The translations under genes and the position numbers were made by a program. This document shows positions 2,670 to 41,658 of a DNA stretch of 64,000 bases, piece after piece (position 1 is the first letter of the stretch; every line of letters starts with the position of its first letter). The notes beneath the pieces were generated by a model that worked only from the letters and a program-made list of their open reading frames with translations, searched no databases and had not been told where the DNA came from. Source of the stretch: Elusimicrobiota bacterium (lineage in GTDB: Bacteria; Elusimicrobiota; Elusimicrobia; UBA1565; UBA9628); contig DAIDHS010000001.1 in NCBI GenBank assembly GCA_027451985.1, forward strand, positions 97,932 to 161,931, written 5' to 3'.

Positions 2670-2672
2670 GGG

Positions 2673-3428: not shown

Positions 3429-3441
3429 AGCGGAGCTCGCC

Positions 3442-4242: not shown

Positions 4243-4290
4243 AAGCGCGCTCTGCGGCCTCCTATTGGATTAAACTGGAATTTCGGGGAC

Positions 4291-5948: not shown

Positions 5949-5959
5949 GGAACTTTCTC

Positions 5960-7957: not shown

Positions 7958-8004
7958 GAACGTTTCGTGGGAATGTTAAAGGGAATTCATTACATTTTCA
8001 AGTC

Positions 8005-11583: not shown

Positions 11584-11667
11584 AATTCCCGCGACGATCA
11601 ATCTTGCGAGAGCATTTCCGGTGTCCACCCCCCAAAATTGAAATTTGGTAAAAAAAGACGGTTTCTC

Positions 11668-11696
11668 TTGACAATGCCTCGGGGCCGCATTAAACT
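11668..11696 (+). promoter_or_regulatory. sigma70-like promoter TTGACA-N17-TAAACT (same hexamers as the promoter at 9897)
   Basis: ttgacaatgcctcggggccgcattaaact, 16 nt upstream of the ATG at 11712. Confidence 0.5.
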
Positions 11697-11711
11697 ACTA
11701 CCAGCATTGAT

Positions 11712-12803: not shown

Positions 12804-12812
12804 GAGAATATT

Positions 12813-15398: not shown

Positions 15399-15481
15399 TG
15401 TTTTTATTTCCAGGTTGCCGCCTTTTGCGCGGAGAGTCTCTTGGTGTGTGGACAAAAAACGGAACTCCTGCTATTCTTTTT

Positions 15482-15533
15482 GGGCCTAAAGTCCTATTGA
15501 CAGCTAGGCCCTTTGGGTCTGGCGAAATAGGAC
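15482..15533 (+). promoter_or_regulatory. nested inverted repeats (GGGCCTA/TAGGCCC and GTCCTATT/AATAGGAC) enclosing a TTGACA hexamer, upstream of the secreted-protein gene
   Basis: gggcctaaagtcctattgacagctaggccctttgggtctggcgaaataggac. The 8-mer arm is shared with the hairpin at 18278. Confidence 0.4.
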
Positions 15534-15554
15534 CGATGGGTTTACAACAGTAAT

Positions 15555-25787: not shown

Positions 25788-25816
25788 TTGAAAATTCAGC
25801 AAACGCCCGCCATAAT
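25788..25816 (+). promoter_or_regulatory. sigma70-like promoter TTGAAA-N17-CATAAT upstream of the 5277-aa gene
   Basis: ttgaaaattcagcaaacgcccgccataat. The -10 ends 8 nt before the ATG at 25825, which would make that start leaderless. Preceded by a weak hairpin ggcagagtcgctgcc after the upstream stop. Confidence 0.45.
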
Positions 25817-25824
25817 ATCCCGTC

Positions 25825-28800
25825 ATGCGAGGGGAATTCCGTATGGGACTAAAGGCCTGGGGAACCCTGGGCCTTTTTAATCCACCTCGGGGGGCCATTA
25901 GACTCTCTTCAGGGCAACCGCTGACCAGTATTCTATTCACATACGCGCGCATGAAAAAGGTTCTTTATAAGCTGACGGCCGTCGTGGTGACGGGAGCGCT
26001 GTTGCTCCTGACTCCGGGCATTTCCTGCTATCAAGTTCTCGCGCAGGATGTCAGCGCCGAGAGCGAGCAGAGCCAGACTCCGGTCAACATGAACTTGGGC
26101 GGGCAACTGGAAACTGTCCCGCTTGAGCAGATGGCGGTTAATCCCGCCGCAGGCGGCCTTTACCAGCTTCCCGACATTCACGTCCCGCCGTCCGAAACCC
26201 TTCCGGTTGGCGCTTCAGCAGTAAAATCCGCGGCTCAATCCGTTTCCGCGTCGGCACAGGCCGCTTCCATTCGGGCGCAATCGGTGCCCGCTGTGGAGGG
26301 TGCGCAAACCGCCGCGGCGGCTCTGCCTGAGACGCCCGCTGCCGCGGCCCTCTCTAATGGCGCCGCGTCCGTTACTCAAGGGCGCGTCGGGACCAGACAG
26401 AGATATTCCCGCGCCGCGGCTTTGTCCGCCGCTCAGGATGGGAGGCAGGCAGTTCGCCTCGGGTCTTTGGGCTGGCTTCGGAGCACCGCCGGCAAGGTGC
26501 GTAGCTGGATTAAACCCGGCGCTTCGGCCGCGAACCTCAAATTTGAGTCCAACAAGTCTTTCGACGCGGCCTACGGGAAATCGGCGGCCGTTCCGTCTGC
26601 AGGAAAATCGGAATCTTTGAGACCCGGCCGCAAGGGGCGAATCGCAAGAACCCTGGGACTTGCCGGGGCCATCGCCGTGCCCGCTGCCGCGGCCGCCATT
26701 CCGCTGCCGGCGAAGGCTGCAGCCGTCGTACACGCCGCGGCCCATTCCGGCCTCATTCATAGCGTCGGGCTGACGTTCCACGCGATTTTGACGGCCATTG
26801 GCCCCGCCGGCATCCATGCCATTTACCTCAGTATGAATGTCTTGGCCGCCGGGTTGGCCTTGCCCGAAGTCCTGCGGACGTTCCGACGCGGCAGCGCGCA
26901 TCAGGTTCCCATGGGCGAGTTGACCATGGCCGTGGTCGGCTCCGCCATCTTCGGACTCATCATCGGCCCGATGAAAGGCTATTGGGGCTGGGCCGCGCAG
27001 AATAACTATGGCGGCTTGTCCATGCTGGCCGTTCTTCCCATCGGCTGGATTTTAGGCCGCGGGGGCGTCAAAATTTTCGGCAAGCGCTTCTGGGGTCCCA
27101 TCCCGGAGCCGCAAAAAACGGAGAATCCCTCCGCGGAAAAACCGGGGCTGCTCAGGCGCATATGGAACGGCTTCAAAGATCCCGCGGTTTTGAGAACCAT
27201 CGCGGCGGCGGCGCTCATCGGAGTTGCGGCCGTTGGGTTCACCCAATTGGCCGCCGCCGTTGGCCCGGCAATTTTCCCGCCGCTCTTGAATTTCGTCGCT
27301 TCCTTGTTCCCGACTACGGCTTCGGGCATGGGTCTTTTGACGGCAGCGGTGCTTTCGGTCCCCGGCTACATCGCGCTCAAGTGGCTGCGCGGGCTTTTGA
27401 AGAGCCCGGTGTCATGGAAAAAGAAGGCGCTGCTGGGACTGCCGCTTCTGGCCGCTTTCCCGGCGATGGCCTTCTGGCTTTGGCCGATGGCCAGCGCCGG
27501 GGCCTTGCCCATGACGGCGGACAAGCTCGTTTCACTCCTGAGCGGCTTGGGCGGGGGGCTCTTCGTCTTCTTGTTCGCTCCCGAGGTCATCCGGGCGTTG
27601 ATTGTGGGTGAGGATTCCTCCAAGCACTTCAACTGGCGAACGTCGCTTATTTTCTCGGTGGCAAGCTTGGGATTCCTGATTTATTGGGGCAACCAGTATT
27701 TCGTCAACCCCGCGTCGATGGGCGTGGCCATGTCCAACATGATCCAAAACGCCATCGGGGGGCTCTTCTCGACCATCAGCTTCTTGCTGGCTTGGAAGCA
27801 CAGAAACCATAAGGTGGCGTCGGCTGCGGAGGAGAACGGTAATGCCGCCCGCGTCGCTGCGGCCGGGGAGGCCGAAAAAATCTCAAATCCCGGACAGGCG
27901 CCTCCGGATCGCTCGCCGCCCGGAGAAAGTCCGGGCGCGCCTAAAACCGAGGGCGAAAACCTCTCGCCCCACGTTTACGAAAACATCTTCGGTTTTAGAG
28001 GAATCAAGGGCCGTTCCTACGCATCCGCCGACAGCAAACTCCAGCCTCTCACCTCTCGCTCCACATCATCCCAGATCGTCGATCGAATTTCCTTTCAATT
28101 TAATATCTCTCGTGACAAAGTATTACTTATAGCATCTCGGCAAGGGATTTCGGAGGCGGCTCCGGCTGCCAGGTGGTTGGCGGTCTACGAGCGGCTCCAG
28201 AAGTCCAACTACGAGCGGTTCAAGGAGTTGGATCACGCCAAGAACGCCGGCCATGGTCTTTTTGGCGAGGCGATCCGGAAAGCCTGGGCTCGGCTGCGGG
28301 GCAAGGCGGCGCCGGACACGGCAGGGTTCCGCAGACTCGCCAACAAGACCTATGCGCCCGGCGCCAAGGGAGTGCTCCAGCGCGCGGCCGGAGTCCATCG
28401 CCTCGTAATCGGCTTCTGGATCGGCTTTGTCTACGAGTGTTTCGACTCCTTCATCCTGGGCTACTTCCGGCAGGCGATAAGCTTCCATTTCCGCCACCGG
28501 AACGAGGACTTCCTAGGCATCGCCGCTGGGCGACAAGACGAACAGGCTGGCGCCTTGTCCGAAAACGCCCTGGCCGCCGCCATCGCCGGCGTCCAGGGCC
28601 GGGGCTTGACCGCGATGGAGCGTTTCAACGCGACGGCCGTGGGGCACGCCGTGTCCGGGGCGGTCATCCGGCCGTTCGTCCACCCCCTGCTGACGTTCCT
28701 GCGCCGCCGTTTAGTCATGGCTCTCCTAAGCGCCGTCGCCATGGGGTTTTTGGGCGCCGCCGCGCCAGCCATGCCGTTTCTGTCCATTTCAGTTTTGACC

Positions 28801-31800
28801 GTTCCGTTTTTAGGGCCGCTCATTTTGCACGCGTCGCATTTCTTCTTGTTCTCGGTTGCCTCGATTCCTGGGGTAGGCCATTTCTTGCTTCCCGTCGTGA
28901 CCAAGGCGGTCAACGCCTTACTCAAGGACTTGGTGCTGGGCCCCATGCTCAACACCTACGTGCTCTCGTTCCTGATGGCGCTCACGCGGCGCCCCGTTCG
29001 GCAGTGGTTGCCCGCGCTTAAGAGCGGTTCGTTCTGGTGGGAGAGTCTAAAGACGTACTTTGGCATGATGACCATCGGCGCCGAAATCGCCGGATGCTTG
29101 AGCTATTTCGCCGGCATCGACAGCGCCATTGACTCCCACGGCTTTTATCAGCTCATCGGCAAGCACATCCATAGCCATTTCCACCTATTCCACGCGCTGG
29201 GCTCGGCGGTGGAAAGCCCCAAGGGCCAAAGCCTCATTCCCTTCGGAGGCGCCATCACCTGGGGCAACGCCCTGCTCTACCACTTCCAAAACGCCATTCA
29301 CTTCAACATTTCCAACTGGATCGCGGTCCACCTTAATCCCGCGGCGCTGGCTCAGGGGGGAGCCCACCGCGCTTTCGAGATGGGGATTTCCAATCCCCTC
29401 CAGAGGGACTTCCAGTTCAATGCCAAGGACTACTTGGCTTCACCGAAGCAGGCTAAGGCGCGCCTCAAGCAGATGGACTCCAACGCGAGCTTCTCCGAAC
29501 TGAGAAAGGAACTGGCCGCTGCCAAAGCCCGGGAACAGGCGCTAAGCTCCGCGGAGGGCCAAGCACAGGACCAGATTCTAAAACTCAAAAAACAACGCCG
29601 GCCGATTACGCCTCAGGAAAAGGCAGAGTACCAGGCGCTATTGAAACAGCTTCAACGTCAGCGGGAAAACGTCTACGCCCAGAATAAGCTCGCGGAAATG
29701 CGCGACTTGAAGGGGCGCAACCCGAAGAGCGACCTTCTCCTGAAATTAACGGCGCTGAAAAAGCAATACGCCGGCCGGCTCAACCCCAAGCCGACGGACA
29801 AGACGGACTACTGGCACGATCTTGGAGTCAAGGAGTCGCAATACGCATCGATGGCCGCCCGGCTCTCGCAGATTGTCCAACCGGCCGGTGGGAATCCGCC
29901 GGACCCAAATGGCGCGGCGCGTTCTTCGGCAGCCAGCGGGGCCGCGTTGGCGGCTGTCAGTGCCGATGCCAGCAAAGACCTTGACGCCATTAAAAGTTCG
30001 ATTCAAAAAATAAACACCAAGCGGGAGGCTTTAAAGGGCGAACTTCTGCGCAAACAGGCCCTTGAGAAGCTCATGGACGCGGAAGCCCGCCTGCGCCAAA
30101 TCGCGCTGGACCAGCGCCGGGACGGCAAGGCGATGCAGGGTTTTCATCAGAGCCTCTCGCAGTTGGACTCGGTCATGGGACTGGCGCTGTCCCAGAACGA
30201 GCTCAACGCCGCCTTGAAGGCCATCAACCAGATGCAGACGCTCATCGGCAACAAGGACGCGACCATCAACCAATCCATCAGCCAAGATCAGGCCAACCTC
30301 CAACAGATTCAAAATCTGCTTAATCAGGAGCAGCAACAGTGGCAGCAGCAGGTCACCCAGCAGGTCAATTCGGACAACCAGGCGCAGAGTGACATGAAGT
30401 CGACCCAGGGAGAAGTCGTCAGCGTCATCTCGTCAGTCCAGACGTTCAGCCAGAGCGAGAAGAACCTCATCGCGAACATCAACACTACGGACGGTGGCGC
30501 CAGCGGCAACGCGCTGACTGAGTACGCCCGCCGCCTTGCGCTCATCCAAAACGGAACCATCGCGCAGTGGGAAAATTCGGGCGGCAATCCCAACGTGACC
30601 TTCACGATGAGCCAGCTAAACGGCTACCTCCAGCAGATTTCCGCGGGCATTCAAGAGGCCCAGAACGGCCTGCAGACGCTTGAGAAGGCTCCGCAAAATT
30701 TCGCGGAAACGGCCATTCTGGAGGTACCAGGGCCGGCGGTCAATGTGCCGCCTAATCCAAGTAAGGCGGATATTCTAAACATCTTGTCCCAGCGCCAAAC
30801 GTATTGGCAGAACGAGCTCAATAGCTACGAGAGCCTGCAGACCACCATCCGGGAAATGGGCGATCCGAACAACCACGCCATGACGCAGAACGTGTTCGGC
30901 GATTCGGAGCCGCAGTCCCTGCCGGTTTGGAAGAGCCAGGAGCAGGGTGTCCTGACCCAGGATCAGACCCAGATCGGCAAGGATACCCAGCAGATGGATC
31001 AAATGGCCGCCGCCGTCAACGCGGCGTTCGGATCCCATCTTCCCATGCTTTCCGGCCAGTCGCTGACCCAACTGCAGAGCGAGGTGCAGAACTACGCGAA
31101 CGATTTGACCGCCCTCAAGATGCCCTCCGGGACGGATCCCAAAACCGTGGAAGCCAAGATGAACTTGATCAACTTGGCATATCTGGTTTCGGACTTGGGC
31201 AACCAGGTCATCAACGCGAGCGTCGCTCAGCAGACGATCACCACCATCGACGGCGCCATGTCCACGACGCTGCCCCAGGCGGCGCAGGGCATCGATGCCA
31301 TCGTGCAGATGGTCAAGAACATCCTGGCGGACGAGCAGATGGACGTGGCCTACGTCAACGGCGACCAGGAGACGCAGCAGCAGGTTTTTACCCGGAAGGA
31401 AAACCTGCTGCAGAACGAGATTCTGCCGTCCCTGCAGCAAGCGCAGAGCATGCTGCAAAATGATCTAATTCCCTTCCAGCAGCAGACGATCGCGTCCTAT
31501 CAGCAAAGCAACTCCACCACGGGCTATTACTACCTATACACGACCAAGCAGTCGTTCCTGACGCAAATCGAGAGCCTCTATAACACCACCATGCCGTGGT
31601 CCATCGAGACGTTCGGGGGGGTGTCGGGAGACAAGGCGGGTTCCCTGCAGGACGTCGCCGCGTGGAAGACCCAGCTGCAGGGCTATTTGACGGGCTACAA
31701 GGACAGCAGCGGCGTCGAGCAGCAGGGCCTTGAGCAGGCTCTACAGGAAGCCAACGACCGCATGACCACGAACTTCAAGGGCAATTCCCAGGACCCTGCG

Positions 31801-34800
31801 ACGGAAACGGTCTACGGCGAGGTGCAGCCCTACAGTCTGCCTGACAAAATCACAAAGTATACGGCGGAAATGCAGACCCGCGTTAGTCAGCTCAATCAGA
31901 ACGACGTGAAGATCAATCAGATGCTGGAGGAGATTAAGACCCTTTCCAACGGACAATACGACTTGACGCAGTATCTGTTGCCGACCGGAGTGGGGACAGA
32001 TGCCGCGAGCGTCGCCAAGATTCAGGCCCTGATCAACGCGAACACCCTGCCTAGCCTGGGATCGGCCCTGCAGCAGGTCGCCAACGAAGCGCTGGCGGCT
32101 TCCGGGAGCACCAACATCAACATCGGCGGCGGCAACGGCAGCGTGCTCTCCGGCACCCAGCCGTCTCCCACCATTTCGAACGACCAGAAAATCGCCCTTT
32201 TGGCATCGCAAATCGGCCCCTTGCTGGCGCCGGCGAGTCAGAGCGTCACCAACCCGTCGGCGGGGGACACCACGGACGCGGTCGCGCGCTACATGTACTC
32301 GAACAGCGTCATCCAGGCCGCCCAGAACGGCGAGCAGTTCATCAATTCCACCGTCTATCCCTTCGTCCACCAGGGCATCCAGACCATCAACGACGCCGTC
32401 AACGACGCGAACAACCGCATCGCCTACATCAACTCGGGCGGAACGAGCATGACTCCGCAGCAGATCTACGATCAGGAGCTGAAGATTTTCAACGAACTCG
32501 GAGGCTTCCTGGATCAGGCGCAGAATTTCTTCGGGCAAAAGAGTAGCTTTGATTCGCAGTCCTTCAGCACGATTTCGAGCATCCTCAACTACTACCAGTC
32601 CTTGGAGACCATCGACCAGTCCGGCATCACCGCGGCCCAAGGCCAGTTGCAGGCGGACCAGACCATTTCCCAGGCGCTGCAGGCGGAGCAGACCAAGCTC
32701 CAGGGCCAGCTGAGTGAAATAAACGGCTGGCTGTCTCAGCTTAACGATCCGCACGACAGCGCCCTGCGGCGCACCAGCGACGCGATTTCCGCGATCATGG
32801 ACCAGACCCGGCAGGTTTTGGAGCAGAACATCAAATTCAAGGACCTGCAGAGCCAGCTGCGCGATTCCGATCAAATCATCCAATCCCAAACGCGCGAGCT
32901 TGAGGTTAAGCAGAAGAATCTGCAGTCTCTGATCGACGATTATGAAAAGAAGGCCGAGGGTCAGCCCTTGCCGCCGGCCGTTGCCCAGCAGGTGAAGGAC
33001 CTTAAGTTCGGGCAGGGTATGTGGGAGCAGGGCGGCCCCGACGGCAGCTATGTGGTCGTTCCTAAGTCCAAGTACCCTTCCTTCGTGCGGGCTCTCCTTA
33101 AAACTATCGCGCCGCAGGATTCCAACGACGCCATCGAGCAGATCGCCCAAAACCTCATCAGCAACCCCCAGAGCCTGATGAGTCTCATCCCAGGATCCCA
33201 AGTCATGAACTTCGGGAACTCCGCTGACGGCTTTTATATGGTCTACCAGACCAACTTGTCCATTCCAAACGGCGTTTCCACGGGCAATTCGGTCACTCTG
33301 GGCAACGTCGCCAGGATTTTCGGCAATAACATAAGCGTCGAGGGTTACCAGTTCGAAAGTCCGCCGGAAAGCCCATCGGGCGGCGCCAGCAACGCGCCGT
33401 GGGGGGACAAGGGCGTGGGCGTGCAGGTCGAGTCTCTGCAGGGCAAGAATTGGGTCAACTACCTGAACATCGACCTGCACCGCTTTGGCTTGAGCGTCCC
33501 GAACAACGACACCATGGCCGCGCAGGTCCAGCAGGACCGCATTCTTGTTTTCGACGACTATGCCATGATGGCCCTCAACGGCAAGCTCTACATCGGCTTG
33601 GCAGGTTTCGGAGACGGAGCGATTCATGACCCCAGCGGCAATCCCTACTACTATGGCGGCAATTTCAAGACCGCGATTCAAATGACTCCCGTCATTAGCT
33701 TGACGGCCCAGCAACAGGAGCTCTTTGCCAACGATCCGAGAAGCTTTCTTGAGAACGTGAACCTTGATTTTACGGGCAACGACCCCAGCTTGAATCAGAA
33801 CTTCGCCATCGCCGCGCAGGGAGACAGTAAGTCCTTTTCGCGCACCAAGCTGGGCACCAGCATAGACGTGGCCCAATGGCTCGCAGGCAATAAACAGAAG
33901 AGTTCGGACGCCTTTACGCTTGACCTGTATTATGACCGAATCCATGGGACGGACGACATCTCTCAGAATGCTTTGGGGGCCTCCGTCATAAAAGGATTTA
34001 CTCTCTACCGCGATAACGGCAAACCCTGGCTCAACATCACCAACAACGCTAGCGGCGAAGCCGGGCAGAAATACGACATGGCCTCGGATGACCTGACCAT
34101 CAACCTGCCCAACGGAATCGTCTTGAGCGGCAACGGACAGATTATGGGTTCCGAACGCGCCTACTACGGGCAGATTGCGAAAAAAATGACCGATACCAGC
34201 CAAATTCAGCTGGGCTACGGTTCGCCGGTCATTGGGATGAACAACCGGCTCAATCTGACGTTCGACTCGTCCTTCAGCCTGCGGCAGATTTGGGAAACGG
34301 TCAGCCGGCAGGCGGCCGATGATCTTCAGGGCGGGCAGGCTCTTAAGCCTTTCAAGAGATCCCTGGCGGATTTCCTCTCGGCCAACTCGGGCGACACGGC
34401 CGCCGCCGAACTTAAAAAAGTCTTCGATCATTACGCGGCCCAGGAACTCGTCGATTCGGACGCCATCGGAGATTTGTCCAAGCAAATCGGGGATTTGCAG
34501 AAAGCCGGTGCTTTCATGGATAACACGAAGGTGCAGTCCGTGTTGGGATTTACCAGCGGCGCCGTGTCCAATGACCCGACGGAGTTGGCCGTCGGCGGCG
34601 GGCCTGTGGTCGGCACGGAAACGACGATGACCATCTCCCGGACGCAAAAGGCGCTCATCGCGGACAAGACGGCGACCTTAATCCGGGACGGTCTGCAGCT
34701 TCAAGACACCATGGTGGGCGCCGCGCAGAAGTTTCAGGGCGCGGTCAAAGACGTGATTGAGGCTGAGGGCTCGCTGCGCATCGCGCAGGCCGCCGAGGCC

Positions 34801-37800
34801 CGCCTGCCCGCCGGCCCGCAGCGCGACGAGGCCCTGGTTCAAGCCGATCGGGCCCAGGCGCGACTCAATGAGGCGATCATCCGCTTCAACGTCATGACCG
34901 GCCGGCCTCCTGGCGCCCAATTTCCCTTGCAGGACCTCAGCGGCGCGACGCTTGAGGACTTGATGGCGCAACTAAAGCAGACCATCACCATGCCGGCTGG
35001 GCTGGCCAGGGTCCTGCACCAGGTCGATCCGCAGAAACTGCAGGCTCGCGTGGGCTCCAATCCCTTCAACATCCTGGATAAAATTCCGTGGGTCGAACGG
35101 ATGACTTTGGGTGTCGGCACCCAGCTTCAAGACAGCATGTCGAGCCAGCTTTTGGGCGCCGGCGGATCGGTCACGCTTCCCATCTACGACCCGACCTCTA
35201 AGGCGAAGAACCATGCCTATCGGCTTGAGAACAAGGCGGCCTTGGCGGAAATTTCCCAGGTCTATGAGGATCACGCGCGAGCTGTGGAAAAGGAGCTTTT
35301 TGAAAGCGGCTTGGCTGGCGACCAAAGCAAAACTCTGGGACCGGAACTGACGCAGGCTTCCAATAATTTAAATGAAGTGTCTGCGGCGTACCGCAACGGG
35401 CTGGCCGGGCCGGCGGAGCTTCAAAAGGCGTACCAGACCTGGATGTGGTATTACGACGCCTACAACGAAGCTCTGGCGACGAAGACTTTGGCCGACGCCT
35501 CCGCGTCTTTAGCGGGGAATTTCTTGTCGCCCGGCCAAGGCTGGAAGGGCGCGGCGGGTCTCATGGGGCCGGATTCTCCGCCGCTGGATTTGACCTCCCT
35601 GCCCCAGGCCGCGTCTTTGGCGGCCGCCCATTCCGGGTCTCTGGAGGAAATGGCGGCACGGGAGCAGGCGGCCCAGGCCATGACTCAGGCTGCAAGCCAC
35701 CGGATTCAGAAGGCCTCGCTCGACTTGTCTGTGGGAGGCAATCTCGTGGCCAGCGGAACGGGGTGGATCCCCAGCATCGGCATGACGGGTTTCCCGGTCA
35801 TGCCGATTTTCAACTTCAAGTTCGAACCTTCGGACTTGCGGGACTTGGACCAAGCCCAACACAAGGCCGAATCCAAATATTATGCCGCGATCAAGGGCAA
35901 GTTGCAGGCGGACTTGGCCTTTGAAATTTATCAAAACGTTCTTACTTACGAGACGTCGATTTCGGAATTGACGCAGTTAAACGACGTCGTCATCCCTCAG
36001 TTCGCAAAGGAGGCGCAGACCGCTTCCGCCGGTCCTGCCGAGGCCGCGGCCCGGCATCGGCTGGACCAAGCGAAGCTTGAGCGCGACGGCGTTTTGTACG
36101 CCGGAGCCCAGGCGCTGGCTTCGGTTAACATGCTTTTGGGTCGGAGCCCTTCCTCCCCTCTGCGTATCGACATTTCCCCGAAGACGGCGACCTTCGATCT
36201 CCAGAAACAATATAAAGCAGAGTCACCCGCGCAGATTCAAGATAAGGTCCTCGGGGCTCAGGTTCGGATCGCACGGACGGCCGAGACCATCACGGACCGG
36301 GGAGAGAAAATCCAGGAGTTGAGCACCGAGCCTGTGTCTCTCGTTGTGCGAGCCGCCGGGCGCTTGCTCCGGACGCTTAGCGGCAACGGCTTGGGTGACC
36401 CCGATTTAAAGCAACAGGCGTTGCTCGAAGACCTCAAAGCCCAGCGGGCGCTGGAGTCTTTCCGGAAAAACGTGCCGGTTGAGCGGGCTCAATTGGAGCA
36501 GCGGCTCGCGGTCGTGACAGACGCCATCTCGAGAACTTCTCCAGAAGGCTCATCCGCCGTCCAATTTATCGATCTCCAGTCTCAAAAAATGCTTCTGCAG
36601 GCCCAGTTGGCGAGTTTGCAAGGCATCGGCACGGAGGCTCCGATAGGCCAAGCCGCTCCTGGATCCGGCGCGCCGTCCGCGATGCCCGATAATTTCGCGG
36701 ACTTGCGCAACCGCCTCGAAACGGCGGAGCAGGGCGTGACGGCGCCGCCAGACGTTCAAGGTGCCGGCTTGGCCAATCCTCAAGTATCCAAGGCGCAACC
36801 CGAGTCCTTTACCCGCTTTTACTATTTGCGCCAGACTTTAGGCAAAACCCAGGTCCACCAGGGCTACTTGGAAAGCTGGCTCGAGGCCAGGCTGCGTTTC
36901 AGCGGCACGTCGCCCAGAGAGCTTCTCCGCCTTGAAAAGCTCCGGGAAGACGAGGAGGATCAGGACTATATGGCCGCGCAGTCCGCGGCCGCAGCCAAAG
37001 GCGACATCCTGGCGGCCGACTTCGCGGCCAAAGTGCAGACTTTCCGCTACATGAAAAAACACATCGGCGCCAAAGACCAGCGCCAAACGGACGAGGCGCT
37101 CACAAGCATACGCCACGCGCTCAAATCCGACGCGGTGCAGATCGCCGCGCTTCTGGGCCTGCCATTGGATGCGGCGGGTAAAGCGGGCGCGACGGACGAA
37201 ACGATGAAGGCATTGATGGCGCTGGTGCCCGAACAAACGGAAAATGCCCAGGCTGTCGGCCAAGATCTTATCAATCGATTGAACGATCAGAGCTTTGCGC
37301 ACATCGAGCAGATGCTGTTCAACGGCCAGGCCCCGATTCCCGGGACTAATTCCGCCGCGGCTTTGAGCGACATACGGACCGACATTCTGCTTAAGCACAT
37401 GGCCTCCTCAAACATCACTCCGGTCGCGGCTTTCGGCGTCTTTCGCGGCCAGCCGGTTGAGGGACTTTTCCTCAAGACCCCTGATCCGACGACCATCGAG
37501 GCGGGGCTTGAGAGCGTGCTTTCCAAGGACATGCTGGCCAAACTCAAGGCTAGCGGAGAACTGCAGGACCTCACCCTCCATTTGAGCCAGCTCATGCAGG
37601 CCGTGCATGACGACGCGCAGACGTTGGAGAGCCAGCGGCGGCTCATTCAGTCCGCCCAGGCGCAGTACGAGAATCTGCTCGCCCTGGGAACCCCGCAGGC
37701 CTCCGCGGAACTGCAGGCCGCCCAGCACGAACTTATCCAGGCTTGGCTCGACTTCAACAACCAGGCGGCGAAATCTAAGTCCGATGTCGTCGAGCTCTCC

Positions 37801-40800
37801 GGTGAAATCCAAGCGTTGGGTTATTCTCCAAGCCAAGAGGGGACTCTCCCTTCCTCCGACATAAGTCTCGAAGCGCAGCCCGCGCGCGAACTTTCTCGGG
37901 GCATGATGGCGTACTGGGCCGAGCGAACGGCGGCTTCAGATTTCGCGGCTCAAGAGCAGAATATCTTGGACGGATTTGGCCCATTGCTTTCTCAGGATTT
38001 CAAGGAGCGATTGGCCTCGGACATTCAATCTTGGAGCCAAGCCCGCGCCGAGGCTCGGCGTCTGCGCGCGGGCGATCTCCCAGCCGTTAAGAAAGACGCG
38101 CTTTTGGTTCAAAACGATGCGACGGGCAAGCAGGAGGCCGTGGAACAGGACTTGGCCGCCTTGGTCGACGCTTTGTCCTCGGCCGGGAACTCTTCCGCGG
38201 CGGCGTCCGGCGACCTGAAGCAGTTGCTGGTCTTCTTGCAGAATGATATGGATGTCCAAGCCAACGCCACGAAGGATCAGCGCCTAAAATACAACAAGAG
38301 CGTCGAGGAACTGCGCAAGACGTATTGGGACTCGCTGCGCCCCGGCTTGCCGCCCAAGGTCGCCGGAGCGTTCACGCGGCTCGAAGACCTGCAGCATAGT
38401 CTGCGCGGAGATTGGCAGAGCCTGCTCGATAGCTATATGGAGAACGGCTCCGGCACGGAGCCGTTCATCATGAAGGACGTTCAGCTGGATGCCTATCTTA
38501 AGGACCAGCACGCCTTCAACCAGGAGATCGTGGCTCTGCTGAAGTCCGACGAAGTGCGGAAGGATCCGGCCGCTCTGGAAGGCCTTGAGTCGCTCTACGA
38601 CGTGCGCACGGCCCTGGACCAGGAGATTGCGGTCGCCCGCTACGGCCGCGGCATGGCGGCCTTGGACGCGCTCATTGAGCTCGATCAGGTGCGTCTTGAC
38701 GCGGCGCGCGGGGAGAACAAGGGGCCGGATGCGATTGCGGCGGCGGTTCAAAGCCTGCAAACCCTCGAAGACATGAAGCAACGCTGGCTCAAAGGGCAGG
38801 ACTCGCTCCAGCCCGTCTACGCCGTGGTCCCCATTCAGAGCGACGGCCAGGACATGAACGTGGTGACGGAATGGCTGACCCAGAAGGAGATCGACGCCCG
38901 CCAAGCGGACGGGCAAGATGAGCCGCTTAAGCATGGCGGGACCATCACCGAGGAGGGCGGCAAGTACTATCTTAACTCCGCGGGGGGAGGGCGATTCCTT
39001 ATTCGCTCAGGAGTGGACCAACTCCAGAGTGGCGTGGACGCCGCGCAAGCAGCGCTGGATCAGAACCAGAGCGTCATCGATTTGGGCTTTAAAGCCGATT
39101 TCGTGTCCGATAAGTTTATCGATGGCAGGCCTGTGAGCCAGTACTCGGTGCAACAAGTCTTCGGCTTGGTGCCGCCTCCCAAGGCTGACGTCGGGTCCCC
39201 GCCGCCTGAACAGCCCCTGTTCCTGTTCTATCAAGTTTCTGGCGCGCCGAGCCTGGGAACGGGGGAAAACGCCGACGCCTTCAGTCGCCTCTTGCCCGAG
39301 GCCATCGCTTTGACGGAAAGCCCGAAGGATTACGCGGTTTACGTCTACACTGGGCCGGAGAAGCTTTCTTATGACAATTTCCCGACGCTCCAGAGCCTTA
39401 AGGATTCCCCGGAATACAAGGACGTGCAGAAGCTGACCCTGACGCCGACGGGTGCCTCCGACGCCTCGATGCTGGCCCGCGGCAGGGGCCTGATCTCGCT
39501 GCGCAAAGGGTGGATCGCGCTCAAGCTCAATAGCTATGGCTTTGCGCTGGACGGCCAGAATCTCGTGAAGGTGTACCAGAGCCGCGATGAGTTCGACGCC
39601 TCGCAAGAGCGGCTGGAGAACGCCAAAGACAATCTTGCCGAGGCCCAGGCGGCTCTTAAACGAGACAGGGCGATCAAAGATGCGGAAAAAAATAAATTCG
39701 ATTCCATTGAGGCCGAGTACAATACTCAACTCGCGAAGTATCAAAAGGCGCTGAACTCCCGGAAACAGCAGTTGGAGAAAATGGCCTTAGGCGATTTGTC
39801 CCAAAAGCCCGGCGAACCCGACGCTTTTTATAAAGTCCGCGTGGAAAGCAAGGTTGACTTCCTCATCAAGGGCGACGCGAAATACCGGGCCATCATGAAA
39901 AATCTTGCTCCCTACGCAAAGAAATTCGATGCTGAGAAGCTCAAGAACGACGCGGCCCAGGCCCAGGCTGATGACGACCAGAAAGCCGTGGACAAGGCCA
40001 GTGCTGTTTTGGCCGACGCGCAGAAATGGAGCTTATACAGGACGGACAATCTCTCGCTGGAATTGGCCGGAGATGGGACGCTCGTGGCCGTCAAGGCGTC
40101 CCCGGCTTACGGTGGAAATTTGCTGAATGAAACTTTGGCCGACGAAGGTCAGAGCGTCCCCGCGAACCCCGTTCTTGTTAATGGGGCCCTTTACGCCGTC
40201 GTTCTAGATGGCGCAGGCCGCGTGGTCAAGACATTCCAAACTTCGGATGCGGTGGAGAAGGCGGCCAAGACTTGGACGATGGAAAGCGTGAGTATGAACC
40301 CGAATGGCGCCGCAGTGGAAAGCGGCGGACGAATCATGACTAACTATCGTCTGGATTATTATGAGGACCCAGCCACCAAGCTGCCAGTTGAGCTCAGCGA
40401 GCGCTACGTGCGCGATCGGGTCGAGCACGACAAACGCAGCCTCTTCTACCGCGAACATTGGGGCTTGATGCCGCAGAATTGGTTCAGCTTGGTCATGAAC
40501 GTGCCGGATCAGATCGTCGGGACTCCCATCGAACTAGCCGGACGGGATCCGAACCAGCAGCATTATCTGGGGCGCGTCAATATGAACCACAGCGAGGGCG
40601 GGGAGACGCAGCATCACGGATTTTTCCGCAACGCCCTGGGTTTCGTGGACGTGCTCGACCTGTTGCCGGACCCGGTGAAGATTTACAACGACCCCAGCCA
40701 GTTCCCCGCGCAATCCCGAATTAGTTCCCCAGTCATGCCGGGCCAGGACATCTACTCGAAGTCCCTGCGCAATCCTAAAGACGGAGAGAACGTCCATTTC

Positions 40801-41658
40801 GGCGCCAAGGCCGTGGCCCAGGGCTTGCAGTACTCTCTTGAGGATTTAACCGACGCCCAGCAACAGACGCTGAGCTATTTCCGGGGCGGCTACGAAGATT
40901 TGATCATCAGCCGCATGCGAGGGCGTGATGGGACGTATGAGGAATCCCAAAGGACGGCCCGCAGCGGCGGCGGTGCCATTGCGAGCAAGCTCGAGGATCA
41001 GGGCACCCGAGACGAGGCTTACGATCCGCTTGCGGCGGCGGACGCCCGTTCTGCCATGCATGGAGTTACGGAGACGGCCAGCCCTGATAATGTCTTGACC
41101 GAACGAGTGGAACGGCGCGTGAAAATTCAGCTTGGGGCCAAGCAGTATAATCAGGCGGCTGATGGGTTTAAGGCCTATTCCAAGGATATAAATGGTGCGA
41201 TTAGCAAAGAGAAAAAAGAGCGAGAGGGGCTTGCAGGATCTTTAAGCGCTGAGCAGGCGGCTTTAGAAAATGCTTTAGCCGCCAGGAATGACGCGCAATC
41301 GAGCCTGGATAAGACATGGTCCAAGTACCACGCGCTGGAATTGCGCATGGGGGCGGAAAAAGCTTTGGAGCAGGGAATTGTCTTGTGGCAGAAGCGCGCT
41401 AATGATTTGGCGGCGCAGTTCAAGACGGCGCAGGCTCAAGCCGACACCATGAGGAACCAGCTTCAGCAAGCCGCTGGCCTCGCCGCCGCGAGCCGCACCT
41501 CGTCCCGGCAGGCCGCCGCGACTTCGTTCCCGTCTCCGGCGCAGCCAAAGACGCCGATTTGGCCGTGGATCTTTTTCTTGGGCGGACTCGTCAGCCTTTT
41601 GGCGGCGGCGTGGGAAGCACTGCGCCATAGAATATTACGCGCCAAGCGTATTGACTAA
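25825..41658 (+). CDS. giant 5277-aa protein: N-terminal polytopic membrane domain, ~4000-aa Gln-rich helical region with a central beta-rich island, and a C-terminal TM anchor; alternative start at 25951 places the signal peptide at the N-terminus
   Basis: One uninterrupted frame of 15.8 kb. From M43 (nt 25951) the sequence is MKKVLYKLTAVVVTGALLLLTPGISCYQVLAQD. More than 15 hydrophobic helices lie in aa ~270-1150. The following ~4 kb of protein is Q/A/L/N-rich helical low complexity (QEQQQWQQQVTQQVNSDNQAQ ...). A beta-strand-like block sits at nt ~33200-34300 (GNSVTLGNVARIFGNNISVEGYQFE...TLDLYYDRIHG...TFDSSFSLRQIW). The C-terminus PIWPWIFFLGGLVSLLAAAWEALRHRILRAKRID is a tail anchor. Confidence 0.7.
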   Translation: MRGEFRMGLKAWGTLGLFNPPRGAIRLSSGQPLTSILFTYARMKKVLYKLTAVVVTGALLLLTPGISCYQVLAQDVSAESEQSQTPVNMNLGGQLETVPLEQMAVNPAAGGLYQLPDIHVPPSETLPVGASAVKSAAQSVSASAQAASIRAQSVPAVEGAQTAAAALPETPAAAALSNGAASVTQGRVGTRQRYSRAAALSAAQDGRQAVRLGSLGWLRSTAGKVRSWIKPGASAANLKFESNKSFDAAYGKSAAVPSAGKSESLRPGRKGRIARTLGLAGAIAVPAAAAAIPLPAKAAAVVHAAAHSGLIHSVGLTFHAILTAIGPAGIHAIYLSMNVLAAGLALPEVLRTFRRGSAHQVPMGELTMAVVGSAIFGLIIGPMKGYWGWAAQNNYGGLSMLAVLPIGWILGRGGVKIFGKRFWGPIPEPQKTENPSAEKPGLLRRIWNGFKDPAVLRTIAAAALIGVAAVGFTQLAAAVGPAIFPPLLNFVASLFPTTASGMGLLTAAVLSVPGYIALKWLRGLLKSPVSWKKKALLGLPLLAAFPAMAFWLWPMASAGALPMTADKLVSLLSGLGGGLFVFLFAPEVIRALIVGEDSSKHFNWRTSLIFSVASLGFLIYWGNQYFVNPASMGVAMSNMIQNAIGGLFSTISFLLAWKHRNHKVASAAEENGNAARVAAAGEAEKISNPGQAPPDRSPPGESPGAPKTEGENLSPHVYENIFGFRGIKGRSYASADSKLQPLTSRSTSSQIVDRISFQFNISRDKVLLIASRQGISEAAPAARWLAVYERLQKSNYERFKELDHAKNAGHGLFGEAIRKAWARLRGKAAPDTAGFRRLANKTYAPGAKGVLQRAAGVHRLVIGFWIGFVYECFDSFILGYFRQAISFHFRHRNEDFLGIAAGRQDEQAGALSENALAAAIAGVQGRGLTAMERFNATAVGHAVSGAVIRPFVHPLLTFLRRRLVMALLSAVAMGFLGAAAPAMPFLSISVLTVPFLGPLILHASHFFLFSVASIPGVGHFLLPVVTKAVNALLKDLVLGPMLNTYVLSFLMALTRRPVRQWLPALKSGSFWWESLKTYFGMMTIGAEIAGCLSYFAGIDSAIDSHGFYQLIGKHIHSHFHLFHALGSAVESPKGQSLIPFGGAITWGNALLYHFQNAIHFNISNWIAVHLNPAALAQGGAHRAFEMGISNPLQRDFQFNAKDYLASPKQAKARLKQMDSNASFSELRKELAAAKAREQALSSAEGQAQDQILKLKKQRRPITPQEKAEYQALLKQLQRQRENVYAQNKLAEMRDLKGRNPKSDLLLKLTALKKQYAGRLNPKPTDKTDYWHDLGVKESQYASMAARLSQIVQPAGGNPPDPNGAARSSAASGAALAAVSADASKDLDAIKSSIQKINTKREALKGELLRKQALEKLMDAEARLRQIALDQRRDGKAMQGFHQSLSQLDSVMGLALSQNELNAALKAINQMQTLIGNKDATINQSISQDQANLQQIQNLLNQEQQQWQQQVTQQVNSDNQAQSDMKSTQGEVVSVISSVQTFSQSEKNLIANINTTDGGASGNALTEYARRLALIQNGTIAQWENSGGNPNVTFTMSQLNGYLQQISAGIQEAQNGLQTLEKAPQNFAETAILEVPGPAVNVPPNPSKADILNILSQRQTYWQNELNSYESLQTTIREMGDPNNHAMTQNVFGDSEPQSLPVWKSQEQGVLTQDQTQIGKDTQQMDQMAAAVNAAFGSHLPMLSGQSLTQLQSEVQNYANDLTALKMPSGTDPKTVEAKMNLINLAYLVSDLGNQVINASVAQQTITTIDGAMSTTLPQAAQGIDAIVQMVKNILADEQMDVAYVNGDQETQQQVFTRKENLLQNEILPSLQQAQSMLQNDLIPFQQQTIASYQQSNSTTGYYYLYTTKQSFLTQIESLYNTTMPWSIETFGGVSGDKAGSLQDVAAWKTQLQGYLTGYKDSSGVEQQGLEQALQEANDRMTTNFKGNSQDPATETVYGEVQPYSLPDKITKYTAEMQTRVSQLNQNDVKINQMLEEIKTLSNGQYDLTQYLLPTGVGTDAASVAKIQALINANTLPSLGSALQQVANEALAASGSTNINIGGGNGSVLSGTQPSPTISNDQKIALLASQIGPLLAPASQSVTNPSAGDTTDAVARYMYSNSVIQAAQNGEQFINSTVYPFVHQGIQTINDAVNDANNRIAYINSGGTSMTPQQIYDQELKIFNELGGFLDQAQNFFGQKSSFDSQSFSTISSILNYYQSLETIDQSGITAAQGQLQADQTISQALQAEQTKLQGQLSEINGWLSQLNDPHDSALRRTSDAISAIMDQTRQVLEQNIKFKDLQSQLRDSDQIIQSQTRELEVKQKNLQSLIDDYEKKAEGQPLPPAVAQQVKDLKFGQGMWEQGGPDGSYVVVPKSKYPSFVRALLKTIAPQDSNDAIEQIAQNLISNPQSLMSLIPGSQVMNFGNSADGFYMVYQTNLSIPNGVSTGNSVTLGNVARIFGNNISVEGYQFESPPESPSGGASNAPWGDKGVGVQVESLQGKNWVNYLNIDLHRFGLSVPNNDTMAAQVQQDRILVFDDYAMMALNGKLYIGLAGFGDGAIHDPSGNPYYYGGNFKTAIQMTPVISLTAQQQELFANDPRSFLENVNLDFTGNDPSLNQNFAIAAQGDSKSFSRTKLGTSIDVAQWLAGNKQKSSDAFTLDLYYDRIHGTDDISQNALGASVIKGFTLYRDNGKPWLNITNNASGEAGQKYDMASDDLTINLPNGIVLSGNGQIMGSERAYYGQIAKKMTDTSQIQLGYGSPVIGMNNRLNLTFDSSFSLRQIWETVSRQAADDLQGGQALKPFKRSLADFLSANSGDTAAAELKKVFDHYAAQELVDSDAIGDLSKQIGDLQKAGAFMDNTKVQSVLGFTSGAVSNDPTELAVGGGPVVGTETTMTISRTQKALIADKTATLIRDGLQLQDTMVGAAQKFQGAVKDVIEAEGSLRIAQAAEARLPAGPQRDEALVQADRAQARLNEAIIRFNVMTGRPPGAQFPLQDLSGATLEDLMAQLKQTITMPAGLARVLHQVDPQKLQARVGSNPFNILDKIPWVERMTLGVGTQLQDSMSSQLLGAGGSVTLPIYDPTSKAKNHAYRLENKAALAEISQVYEDHARAVEKELFESGLAGDQSKTLGPELTQASNNLNEVSAAYRNGLAGPAELQKAYQTWMWYYDAYNEALATKTLADASASLAGNFLSPGQGWKGAAGLMGPDSPPLDLTSLPQAASLAAAHSGSLEEMAAREQAAQAMTQAASHRIQKASLDLSVGGNLVASGTGWIPSIGMTGFPVMPIFNFKFEPSDLRDLDQAQHKAESKYYAAIKGKLQADLAFEIYQNVLTYETSISELTQLNDVVIPQFAKEAQTASAGPAEAAARHRLDQAKLERDGVLYAGAQALASVNMLLGRSPSSPLRIDISPKTATFDLQKQYKAESPAQIQDKVLGAQVRIARTAETITDRGEKIQELSTEPVSLVVRAAGRLLRTLSGNGLGDPDLKQQALLEDLKAQRALESFRKNVPVERAQLEQRLAVVTDAISRTSPEGSSAVQFIDLQSQKMLLQAQLASLQGIGTEAPIGQAAPGSGAPSAMPDNFADLRNRLETAEQGVTAPPDVQGAGLANPQVSKAQPESFTRFYYLRQTLGKTQVHQGYLESWLEARLRFSGTSPRELLRLEKLREDEEDQDYMAAQSAAAAKGDILAADFAAKVQTFRYMKKHIGAKDQRQTDEALTSIRHALKSDAVQIAALLGLPLDAAGKAGATDETMKALMALVPEQTENAQAVGQDLINRLNDQSFAHIEQMLFNGQAPIPGTNSAAALSDIRTDILLKHMASSNITPVAAFGVFRGQPVEGLFLKTPDPTTIEAGLESVLSKDMLAKLKASGELQDLTLHLSQLMQAVHDDAQTLESQRRLIQSAQAQYENLLALGTPQASAELQAAQHELIQAWLDFNNQAAKSKSDVVELSGEIQALGYSPSQEGTLPSSDISLEAQPARELSRGMMAYWAERTAASDFAAQEQNILDGFGPLLSQDFKERLASDIQSWSQARAEARRLRAGDLPAVKKDALLVQNDATGKQEAVEQDLAALVDALSSAGNSSAAASGDLKQLLVFLQNDMDVQANATKDQRLKYNKSVEELRKTYWDSLRPGLPPKVAGAFTRLEDLQHSLRGDWQSLLDSYMENGSGTEPFIMKDVQLDAYLKDQHAFNQEIVALLKSDEVRKDPAALEGLESLYDVRTALDQEIAVARYGRGMAALDALIELDQVRLDAARGENKGPDAIAAAVQSLQTLEDMKQRWLKGQDSLQPVYAVVPIQSDGQDMNVVTEWLTQKEIDARQADGQDEPLKHGGTITEEGGKYYLNSAGGGRFLIRSGVDQLQSGVDAAQAALDQNQSVIDLGFKADFVSDKFIDGRPVSQYSVQQVFGLVPPPKADVGSPPPEQPLFLFYQVSGAPSLGTGENADAFSRLLPEAIALTESPKDYAVYVYTGPEKLSYDNFPTLQSLKDSPEYKDVQKLTLTPTGASDASMLARGRGLISLRKGWIALKLNSYGFALDGQNLVKVYQSRDEFDASQERLENAKDNLAEAQAALKRDRAIKDAEKNKFDSIEAEYNTQLAKYQKALNSRKQQLEKMALGDLSQKPGEPDAFYKVRVESKVDFLIKGDAKYRAIMKNLAPYAKKFDAEKLKNDAAQAQADDDQKAVDKASAVLADAQKWSLYRTDNLSLELAGDGTLVAVKASPAYGGNLLNETLADEGQSVPANPVLVNGALYAVVLDGAGRVVKTFQTSDAVEKAAKTWTMESVSMNPNGAAVESGGRIMTNYRLDYYEDPATKLPVELSERYVRDRVEHDKRSLFYREHWGLMPQNWFSLVMNVPDQIVGTPIELAGRDPNQQHYLGRVNMNHSEGGETQHHGFFRNALGFVDVLDLLPDPVKIYNDPSQFPAQSRISSPVMPGQDIYSKSLRNPKDGENVHFGAKAVAQGLQYSLEDLTDAQQQTLSYFRGGYEDLIISRMRGRDGTYEESQRTARSGGGAIASKLEDQGTRDEAYDPLAAADARSAMHGVTETASPDNVLTERVERRVKIQLGAKQYNQAADGFKAYSKDINGAISKEKKEREGLAGSLSAEQAALENALAARNDAQSSLDKTWSKYHALELRMGAEKALEQGIVLWQKRANDLAAQFKTAQAQADTMRNQLQQAAGLAAASRTSSRQAAATSFPSPAQPKTPIWPWIFFLGGLVSLLAAAWEALRHRILRAKRID

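Follow-up and report, generated by a model that had tools for sequence, protein, structure and literature searches.

The window analysed here is a 64,000-nucleotide stretch of Elusimicrobiota bacterium DNA (GenBank assembly GCA_027451985.1, contig DAIDHS010000001.1, positions 97,932 to 161,931 of the forward strand). It carries a giant gene whose reading frame is free of stops over 5277 codons. The predicted product consists of several regions: a Sec-type signal peptide, a group of inner-membrane helices, an internal outer-membrane β-barrel, a series of TolC-like repeats and a C-terminal membrane helix, interconnected by long stretches rich in glutamine or poor in proline (Table 1; residues are numbered along the 5277-codon frame). 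The chances are about even that this one polypeptide spans both membranes, thereby tying an outer-membrane channel module to the inner membrane.

Table 1 Features of the giant gene, its product and the flanking genes (window coordinates unless a locus is named)
Feature	Coordinates	Strand	Residues and remarks
Giant open reading frame	25825..41658	+	5277 codons plus stop, mechanical listing
Probable coding sequence of the giant gene	25951-41658	+	5235 aa
Sigma-70-like promoter TTGAAA-17-CATAAT	25788..25816	+	10/12 match; 0.3 expected in shuffles
Leader, promoter to probable start codon	25817-25950	+	~130 nt; GC-rich hairpin then TTTTT, ~25845-25880
Sec-type signal peptide (predicted)	25951..26043	+	aa 43-73, ...LLLTPGISCYQVLA then QD; mean hydropathy 1.71, occupancy 0.98
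Lineage-specific helix cluster, ~10-11 helices	26650..27795	+	aa 276-657; alignment occupancy 0.1-0.6
Conserved soluble domain	27922..28374	+	aa ~700-850; consensus GFR.V.G...ISRQF...WL.VYD.LQ..N...FK.LD..KY
Conserved membrane module	28387..29124	+	aa ~855-1100; family-mean hydropathy up to 1.98, occupancy ~1.0
Longest proline-free stretch	29908..30588	+	aa 1362-1588, 227 aa
Gln/Asn-rich region with tandem internal duplication	30316..32649	+	aa ~1498-2275
Outer-membrane β-barrel domain (predicted)	33235..34278	+	aa ~2471-2818; modelled with ~20 antiparallel strands
Three to four tandem TolC/OEP-like half-repeats	34504..36840	+	aa ~2894-3672
Lys/Glu/Asp/Ala-rich Pro-free segment, coiled-coil-like	39448..39807	+	aa 4542-4661
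Conserved C-terminal globular block	40342..41004	+	aa ~4840-5060
Pro-free, helix-prone segment adjoining the C-terminal anchor	41086..41529	+	aa 5088-5235, 148 aa
C-terminal transmembrane helix and basic tail	41557..41655	+	aa 5245-5266, IWPWIFFLGGLVSLLAAAWEAL, then RHRILRAKRID
Upstream 2460-aa protein	18354..25736	+	Signal peptide, G/A-rich hydrophobic region, SF2 ATPase, toxin module
dCache-HAMP-PAS-HisKA-HATPase histidine kinase	41695-43866	+	36 nt after the giant gene's stop
LysM + Glucodextran_B protein	43863-45272	+	Start overlaps the kinase stop by 4 nt
Glucodextran_C/SLH-like secreted protein	45274-47082	-	Convergent; likewise in L005 and L023
Y1_Tnp (IS200-like) + DnaA C-terminal helix-turn-helix gene	L001 507-1409, L002 3280-4185, L025 1150-2139, and 12 further loci

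An intact gene in a family nearly confined to one phylum

An earlier reading, made by a model from the letters of the window and hereafter called the sequence-only reading, had described a single 15.8-kb open reading frame (ORF) of 5277 codons, and this description is borne out. The frame lies in DNA of 56-63% G+C and recurs as one unbroken ORF of 4,600-5,800 codons in ~20 independent short-read contigs of Elusimicrobiota metagenome-assembled genomes (MAGs). A paralogous gene of ~3,850 codons is likewise intact in 13 contigs, and together these contigs counter the worry, voiced in the same reading, that assembly errors might split the ORF into several genes. Because one intact ORF is found in ~20 independent Elusimicrobiota MAGs, the giant gene is real and an assembly artefact is excluded. 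The broken frames of some related assemblies and the absence of database annotations would fit a chimera created during assembly, or else a frame in GC-rich DNA that is long but non-coding or decaying. The probability of such an artefact is nonetheless close to nil, and it is effectively refuted by the 5277 stop-free codons at ~60% GC, by a protein-level conservation of 31-47% over ~4,500 residues in dozens of MAGs from different studies, by collinear blocks even in the most distant subfamily, and by conserved synteny.

The broken copies, fragmented by repeated frame changes, occur at the loci L001/L015 (CP096137), L002, L068 and L069. By tblastn, their fragments are collinear with aa ~690 to ~5263 of the window protein, the L002 contig bears a nanopore-style 'np' name, and indel errors are the probable cause of the frame changes. 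At another locus, L003, whose protein is 86% identical, an in-frame TAG at ~6575 (window aa ~1216) replaces the CAG (Gln) of the window. The stop codon lies precisely at the junction of the membrane domain with the periplasmic part, where the NCBI annotation has two genes, and the codon could reflect an error in sequencing, a nonsense mutation of recent origin or a true division of the gene. Together with paralogues that comprise the post-anchor part alone behind a signal peptide of their own, it lends some weight to a polyprotein, cleaved or in some lineages separately encoded into a conventional multi-subunit system of an inner-membrane protein, an outer-membrane barrel/TolC-like protein and periplasmic pieces. 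Such a polyprotein is nevertheless very unlikely. The ~20 independent contigs keep one ORF, the part after the L003 stop would be without a signal peptide, the frames of the broken copies shift repeatedly in a manner attributable to indels, and neither a protease domain nor a conserved motif for cleavage was found.

The true start is probably the ATG at 25951. This codon is favoured because a promoter-like TTGAAA-17-CATAAT, its sequence kept in L003, ends 9 nt upstream of the alternative ATG at 25825, because the NCBI annotation of L003 begins at the equivalent ATG, and because the corresponding MKRLLHKL start is the first in-frame start codon in L005. The leader between promoter and start codon holds a hairpin that is conserved, with substitutions, in L003; an Rfam search of the leader returned no family, and a simple terminator scan did not call the hairpin.

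A pattern scan covering one genome per GTDB species yielded 90 relatives, and every named record among them belongs to Elusimicrobiota or to an unclassified 'bacterium' MAG. When a profile of the central region was searched against 1.84 billion representative proteins, only 110 matches were returned, nearly all of them giant proteins or fragments thereof. The sources that were looked up are all Elusimicrobiota, except for two Omnitrophota proteins and four ordinary OEP proteins, and on these searches the family appears almost confined to Elusimicrobiota. Three types are distinguished. Type A, which includes the window protein, has the signal peptide, the membrane-helix region and the C-terminal anchor. 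Type B, of ~3,850 aa, has the signal peptide only, is homologous to window aa ~1270-5120 and often shares a genome with type A (CP096137, PLZD01, JACQAZ, PFUL01, CBDIQC). Type C is more distant, measuring 2,600-3,800 aa and collinear along its length. Collinear homology to the window protein spans aa ~690 to ~5260. Measured against 18 type-A homologues, conservation is low at aa 43-640, where the first helix cluster reaches an alignment occupancy of 0.4-0.6, climbs from aa ~740 and peaks at aa 943-1143 (the conserved membrane block), 2443-2900, 3043 and 3243 (hairpins, see below), 3843, 4243 and 4843-5043.

Elusimicrobia are enriched in proteins of >5,000 aa, which a survey of huge proteins left undescribed (PMC11573180). 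The family is uncharacterised and nearly restricted to one phylum; neither it nor its architecture was found described in the literature searched.

A predicted internal barrel followed by TolC-like repeats

The barrel region is the most conserved part of the protein and the signature of the family, with 60% mean identity over aa 2443-2542 among the 18 homologues and dozens of invariant G/P/D/Y/N residues. In the AlphaFold2 model of aa 2430-2880, built on a 33-sequence alignment (mean predicted local distance difference test, pLDDT, 75.3; predicted template modelling score, pTM, 0.61), ~20 antiparallel meander strands of 7-15 residues are connected by short turns, and aa ~2471-2818 are predicted to form a closed antiparallel meander barrel. 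The last strand region reads ..SFSLRQIW (consensus SFTL..LW), and the barrel is internal to the chain, which continues for another ~2,400 residues. A Foldseek search of the model against the PDB returned 96 matches at E<=1e-3. All those listed are outer-membrane barrels, including TonB-dependent receptors, OmpT/OmpU, BcsC, Occ porins, CdiB/FhaC and OmpG. The predicted fold class is clearly that of an outer-membrane barrel, without a close relative. The sequence-only reading had placed a β-rich block at nt ~33200-34300 and considered that it could be a barrel or sandwich domain, possibly associated with the outer membrane; the domain lies at almost that position, and both the model and the barrel matches support the assignment.

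Compared with the export barrels of PgaA, BcsC and the AlgE/AlgK type, the window barrel shows 7-9% identity and TM-scores of 0.3-0.45. Because BamA, TOM40, Occ porins and TonB-dependent receptors score similarly, the resemblance to PgaA and BcsC is generic to outer-membrane barrels. There were no TPR matches, and the neighbourhood holds no polysaccharide synthase gene.

Beyond the barrel, the chain enters a region remotely related to the outer membrane factor family (Pfam OEP). The weakest matches of the family profile are the four ordinary proteins, of 350-480 aa, which themselves match Pfam OEP at E 1e-34 to 1e-70. When the family is aligned with these four by hhalign (95.6% probability, E 1.1e-8), window aa ~3013-3229 are paired with the second OEP repeat, including MTGRPP, LPIYDP and AYRNGL, and the aligned OEP motifs are llGR.P, LP.YD and YR.G. 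With a 20-sequence full-length profile, aa 2894-3233 span nearly the whole OEP protein (92.7%, E 4e-7), and shifted alternative alignments cover aa 3080-3464 and 3236-3672. Three to four tandem half-repeats are proposed because of these shifted alignments across aa 2894-3672, and the motifs carried by the repeats are NVMTGRPP, LPIYDP, AYRNGL and LLGRSP. A hidden Markov model (HMM) built from the four OEP sequences was run against 85 long sequences. At E<=5e-5 it matches 20 family members, drawn from types A and B; at E<=1 the number rises to 25, and most of the matches fall at a single equivalent position some 230 residues past the barrel. Pfam sets the gathering score of OEP at 22 bits, and two homologues score higher, P0067 at 28.7 and P0033 at 29 bits; the former is named 'TolC family protein' by NCBI. 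By profile-profile comparison, the region is a remote OEP homologue with the helix-hairpin-helix repeat.

The model of aa 2441-3640 places hairpins at aa 2901-2935, 3093-3117 and ~3300-3325, between helices of 25-63 residues (pLDDT 70-85). Its top Foldseek matches are TolC, OprM/OprN, CmeC, CusC, VceC and MtrE, at 11-15% identity. The likeness to TolC/OEP (PF02321) lies in the tandem helix-β-hairpin-helix repeats, the motifs llGR.P, LP.(Y/F)D and YR.G, and helices of 50-60 residues. TolC is a homotrimer with a 12-strand barrel and a ~10-nm α-helical tunnel that docks to periplasmic adaptors, and helices of 50-63 residues in the window monomer model are compatible with those of the tunnel. TolC is, however, a stand-alone protein of ~430-500 aa with its own signal peptide or lipobox and two repeats, whereas the window protein has three to four repeats inside 5,235 aa, preceded by a separate large β-barrel and flanked by inner-membrane anchors. 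Strictly speaking, the window protein is not a TolC family member, since it does not stand alone, carries more repeats than two and scores below the Pfam threshold.

Probable anchors at both ends and the segments between them

Hydrophobic segments were located with a 19-residue Kyte-Doolittle window at thresholds of >=1.6 and >=1.2. The signal-like segment noticed at nt 25951 in the sequence-only reading (MKKVLYKLTAVVVTGALLLLTPGISCYQVLA, aa 46-71 on this scale) is confirmed as a putative signal peptide, and its c-region, SPG..Y.ALA, is kept in all subfamilies. Across aa 46-1054, 12 segments are found at the stricter threshold and ~16-18 at the lower, so that the count of more than 15 hydrophobic helices in the first ~1150 aa stands at >=1.2 and fails at >=1.6. 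The helix cluster of aa 276-657 is absent or different in most homologues, with an 86%-identical copy only in L003/P0011. It is followed by the soluble ISRQF-containing domain, for which no known family matched, and then by the conserved membrane module. This module consists of an amphipathic FVRFPYHLFD.F.FGYFR part, a continuous hydrophobic block of ~90-100 aa (aa 963-1054, about four transmembrane helices) and a TVGAEIEG segment. The short type-A members have a signal peptide, a soluble region and one ~100-residue hydrophobic block of approximately four helices. Since a homology search with the N-terminal 1158 aa matched only one 86%-identical relative, the membrane domain could not be linked to a transporter family.

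At the other end, a single helix terminates 11 residues before the end of the protein. P..W.W lies before it and four to six basic residues come after it. The pattern W.W...L..AA.W.WLRRR is kept in type A, the long subfamily, and the ~3850-aa paralogues lack it. The sequence-only reading had seen a protein anchored by hydrophobic helices near both ends, which agrees with this conservation, and had called the last helix a classic tail anchor. The helix and its RHRILRAKRID tail stand, and the term does not. Because of the N-terminal signal peptide, the last helix is better read as a putative stop-transfer anchor with a cytoplasmic tail, and the class of tail-anchored proteins is rejected for the window protein by that signal peptide and the further transmembrane helices. 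With an even number of helices in the N-terminal bundle, the chain would be back in the periplasm, as required for the barrel and the hairpins to reach the outer membrane. The bulk of the protein, ~4,100 residues, is thus hypothesized to be periplasmic, on a topology of both ends that is itself predicted.

The sequence between the anchors is not a uniform helix. Glutamine reaches 10-16% only in aa ~1250-2500 and is 4-10% beyond, and aa 1151-5240 hold 171 prolines and 290 glycines, with a median Pro-free run of 12.5 aa. Of the ~4000 aa of Gln-rich helix described earlier, the Gln-rich part at aa ~1250-2500 is therefore retained, and the remainder, with its lower glutamine and its prolines, is not. 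A continuous ~4000-aa coiled coil is rejected in view of the Pro/Gly interruptions, the barrel, the hairpins, the duplication and the other conserved non-helical blocks. The supposed span of hundreds of nanometres falls with it, the modelled helices measuring 25-63 residues as in TolC and prolines occurring throughout. The longest Pro-free runs are 227 aa (1362-1588), 148 aa (5088-5235) and 120 aa (4542-4661), the last of which contains the longest run free of both proline and glycine (78 aa). The first may serve as a helical stalk in the periplasm, distal to the N-terminal anchor, and the second is a candidate periplasm-spanning stalk that would measure ~22 nm if fully helical. Whether the protein contains internal repeats, a question raised by the sequence-only reading, is answered by comparing the family profile with itself, which reveals 2-3 tandem copies of ~290 aa (probability 97%, E 1e-10). 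The conserved block at aa ~4840-5060 has the consensus MPWNW.N...TGRDPNQ.HYLGR...EGG.T.HHGF...DPSQFP and matches no known family.

A proposed trans-envelope architecture

The proposal that follows reads topology, oligomeric state, insertion into both membranes and transport function from sequence and predicted structure, as does every functional statement made here. Export would begin with the Sec signal peptide. The conserved bundle of about four inner-membrane helices, joined in this lineage by the specific cluster, would hold the N-terminal end, and the following ~4,100 residues would form one enormous periplasmic loop, until the C-terminal stop-transfer helix, with its basic cytoplasmic tail, returns the chain to the inner membrane and pins it there. 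The central part of the loop would enter the outer membrane, first as a 16-20-strand barrel (aa ~2471-2818) and then through the TolC/OEP-type repeats (aa ~2894-3670), with the repeat hairpins lodged in the outer membrane and the 25-63-residue helices projecting into the periplasm. The Pro-free segments beside the anchors (aa 1362-1588 and 5088-5235) are long enough that they could bridge the periplasm. The most likely role of the whole is that of a permanent trans-envelope assembly, an outer-membrane channel or exit duct tied to the inner membrane, serving as conduit, tether or both. The fuller version is more tentative and falls short of even chances: that the ~560-kDa protein, probably oligomeric, is a permanent trans-envelope duct built from one gene, mostly peculiar to Elusimicrobiota and using three modes of membrane insertion, namely α-helical anchors at both ends, an internal 16-20-strand barrel and TolC-type hairpins. 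The giant tether, ruler or conduit imagined in the sequence-only reading survives in modified form as a tether or conduit, without the long coiled-coil span.

Several observations weigh against this architecture. The ~3,850-aa paralogues retain the barrel and the repeats but have neither inner-membrane anchor, so the core function does not depend on tethering to the inner membrane. Around the hydrophobic block, RRR before aa 963 and RRPVR after aa 1054 slightly favour, by the positive-inside rule, an odd helix count. An internal barrel with over 2,000 residues on either side of it would make an unusual substrate for the BAM barrel-assembly machinery, and the barrel model matches PDB barrels at sequence identities of 6-12% and low TM-scores (0.3-0.45). 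The model of aa 2441-3640 has a mean pLDDT of 46 and a TM-score to TolC of 0.2. The window protein itself gives no match to Pfam OEP at E<=0.1, below the gathering score, and is not among the matches of the small OEP HMM in the 85 long sequences searched, so that the TolC link runs through profiles and homologues. Neither the window protein nor its pieces, three overlapping ones for Pfam and NCBIfam, match Pfam, NCBIfam or PDB sequences at E<=0.1-1, and ~70% of its length has no assignable fold. In Pfam and NCBIfam searches, no enzymatic, ATPase or other energising domain was found in it. Family profiles searched against PDB sequences likewise returned nothing meaningful.

The main rival is a purely structural tether or spacer, which would staple the outer membrane to the inner membrane and the peptidoglycan and set or stabilise envelope geometry while nothing passes; the barrel and the TolC-like hairpins would merely anchor it in the outer membrane. 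Anchors at both ends with Pro-free helical segments beside each suit such a role, as do a conserved LysM neighbour, the convergent Glucodextran_C/SLH-like protein in the window and the lack of any energising domain among the matches. The near restriction to one phylum, often with a second paralogue per genome, is likewise what a structural envelope component might show. We consider this account rather unlikely. The paralogues without inner-membrane anchors speak against it, TolC-type repeats and 16-20-strand barrels form channels in all characterised cases, and the Gln/Asn-rich repeats and conserved globular blocks are left unexplained by a simple tether.

Among known systems, the closest in plan is Dma1 of Bacteroides thetaiotaomicron, a single polypeptide with an inner-membrane helix and an outer-membrane barrel (PMC10927553), and the only published single-chain protein of this kind that was found. 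The likeness lies in one chain that joins an α-helical inner-membrane anchor and an outer-membrane barrel through the periplasm, and by prediction the window ORF encodes both elements. Dma1, however, measures ~55 kDa and has one transmembrane helix, a disordered linker, an 8-strand C-terminal barrel and a role in sigma-factor signalling (PMC10927553), whereas the window protein measures ~560 kDa and has an internal 16-20-strand barrel and TolC-like repeats, after which the chain would return to the inner membrane. No sequence relationship between the two and no anti-sigma domain in the window protein were detected. SLH-domain barrel/stalk proteins are comparable in that a long helical stalk connects their outer-membrane barrel with an inner layer of the envelope. 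They bind peptidoglycan through SLH and possess a single continuous coiled coil, whereas the window protein has no SLH, interrupted helices and inner-membrane helix anchors.

Were the trans-envelope architecture correct, most sampled Elusimicrobiota lineages would join both membranes covalently through one giant protein that brings its own outer-membrane barrel and TolC-like duct. Known trans-envelope machines are built from separate inner-membrane, periplasmic and outer-membrane subunits, and Dma1, described in 2024, is ten times smaller and simple in architecture. The window protein would then be by far the largest dual-membrane protein known and would provide the first TolC-type exit duct with a covalent connection to the inner membrane. 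For Sec and BAM, its biogenesis would be a problem of a new kind, namely a periplasmic loop of 4,100 residues that has a barrel inside it. The family, annotated almost everywhere as 'hypothetical protein' and here assigned two folds, offers a handle on large-loop export, on BAM and internal barrels, and on envelope spacing and transport in a poorly studied phylum, and it bears on what the Elusimicrobia 'huge proteins' do (PMC11573180).

Neighbouring genes and a possible surface role

Downstream of the giant gene, 12 other type-A loci have both the histidine kinase and the LysM gene, and a further 3 have only the kinase. On this synteny both appear to be conserved partners of the giant gene, and an envelope role is pointed to because these operon partners are a periplasm-sensing histidine kinase and a LysM peptidoglycan-binding protein. 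The LysM protein and the convergent Glucodextran_C/SLH-like protein are both secreted and carry glucodextranase-type modules without a catalytic domain, which suggests cell-wall or S-layer-type attachment proteins.

The upstream 2460-aa protein has a different distribution, and an exact look-up of it returned no record. Its sole Pfam match is ResIII (E 3e-5), with the motifs GGGKT/DEYD/QLVGRAAEG, and its C-terminal 80 residues match PDB 8ey4, a 'PT-VENN domain-containing protein' (E 1.6e-22). Among relatives (L003 1-2976, L005 21-2796), the last ~150 aa vary and the body is conserved: in L003 the C-terminus is replaced by CdiA_C followed by a SitI3 immunity gene, and in L005 by another module followed by a 138-aa ORF. 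Because this module is swapped among relatives, the neighbour is classed as a polymorphic-toxin-type protein. Between 25736 and 25951, no ORF of a size suited to an immunity gene is evident in the window. Of the loci that extend to the 5' end of the giant gene, the window, L003 and L005 are the only ones in which the protein adjoins it. The protein is a neighbour specific to this lineage and not a partner of the family, and functional coupling to the toxin/ATPase gene is rejected as a property of the family. The SecA-like motor and the translocation analogy of the sequence-only reading are not upheld, given a single ResIII match, a pairing that is not conserved and no BLASTP similarity to the SecA domain of the Omnitrophota protein P0099; a homology search with the ATPase region returned one uninformative match.

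The two Omnitrophota proteins provide the only detected link beyond Elusimicrobiota besides the ordinary OEP proteins. P0099 (2503 aa) carries the family barrel at its truncated end together with SecA_DEAD, SecA_PP_bind, Peptidase_M23 and LysM, and P0096 (6932 aa) carries it near the N-terminus. The Omnitrophota giants, or 'archaeovorins', exceed 30,000 aa, pair many transmembrane helices with divergent SecA domains and, with SecA_DEAD and many enzymatic domains, are proposed to act on the cell walls of prey (bioRxiv 10.1101/2023.11.21.568195). They come from a neighbouring candidate phylum, and the window protein resembles them as a very large envelope-associated protein with many transmembrane helices. 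It differs in its 5,235 aa without SecA or enzymatic domain, only the barrel being common to both.

This shared barrel, the SecA pairing of the Omnitrophota giants and the polymorphic-toxin-type gene ahead of the giant gene in the window, L003 and L005 would suit a cell-surface attack or attachment protein akin to those giants, in which the barrel exports or displays the Gln/Asn-rich parts toward prey, hosts or competitors, possibly together with the toxin. Such a role is distinctly unlikely. SecA, adhesin, glycosidase, peptidase and toxin domains were not found in the window protein or in 10 homologues, the toxin neighbour is missing from the other type-A loci, and the homology with Omnitrophota is limited to the barrel, the full-length family HMM being unmatched there. 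The basic tail after the last helix and the TolC-type helices fit the periplasm better than the exterior.

In 15 other type-A loci, the upstream position is occupied by a ~300-aa Y1_Tnp + DnaA_C-helix-turn-helix protein, a gene absent from the window. A mobile-element or plasmid context is rejected, the window carrying ligA, purH, gdh and similar genes. Ahead of the toxin-like gene, 9955-18173 (+) holds four consecutive ORFans of 542, 363, 861 and 872 aa, each with a signal peptide or an N-terminal transmembrane helix, which may form an export or accessory set for the toxin-like protein. They have no Pfam match and no homologue in 80 related loci, and none of the five upstream proteins matched a defence system in PADLOC. 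Further upstream, 3445-9627 (-) encodes a MotA/ExbB-family protein, a 476-aa ORFan, a 665-aa FliG_M + FliG_C + TPR fusion and a TPR protein, an unusual FliG-like rotor/stator pairing outside a flagellar locus.

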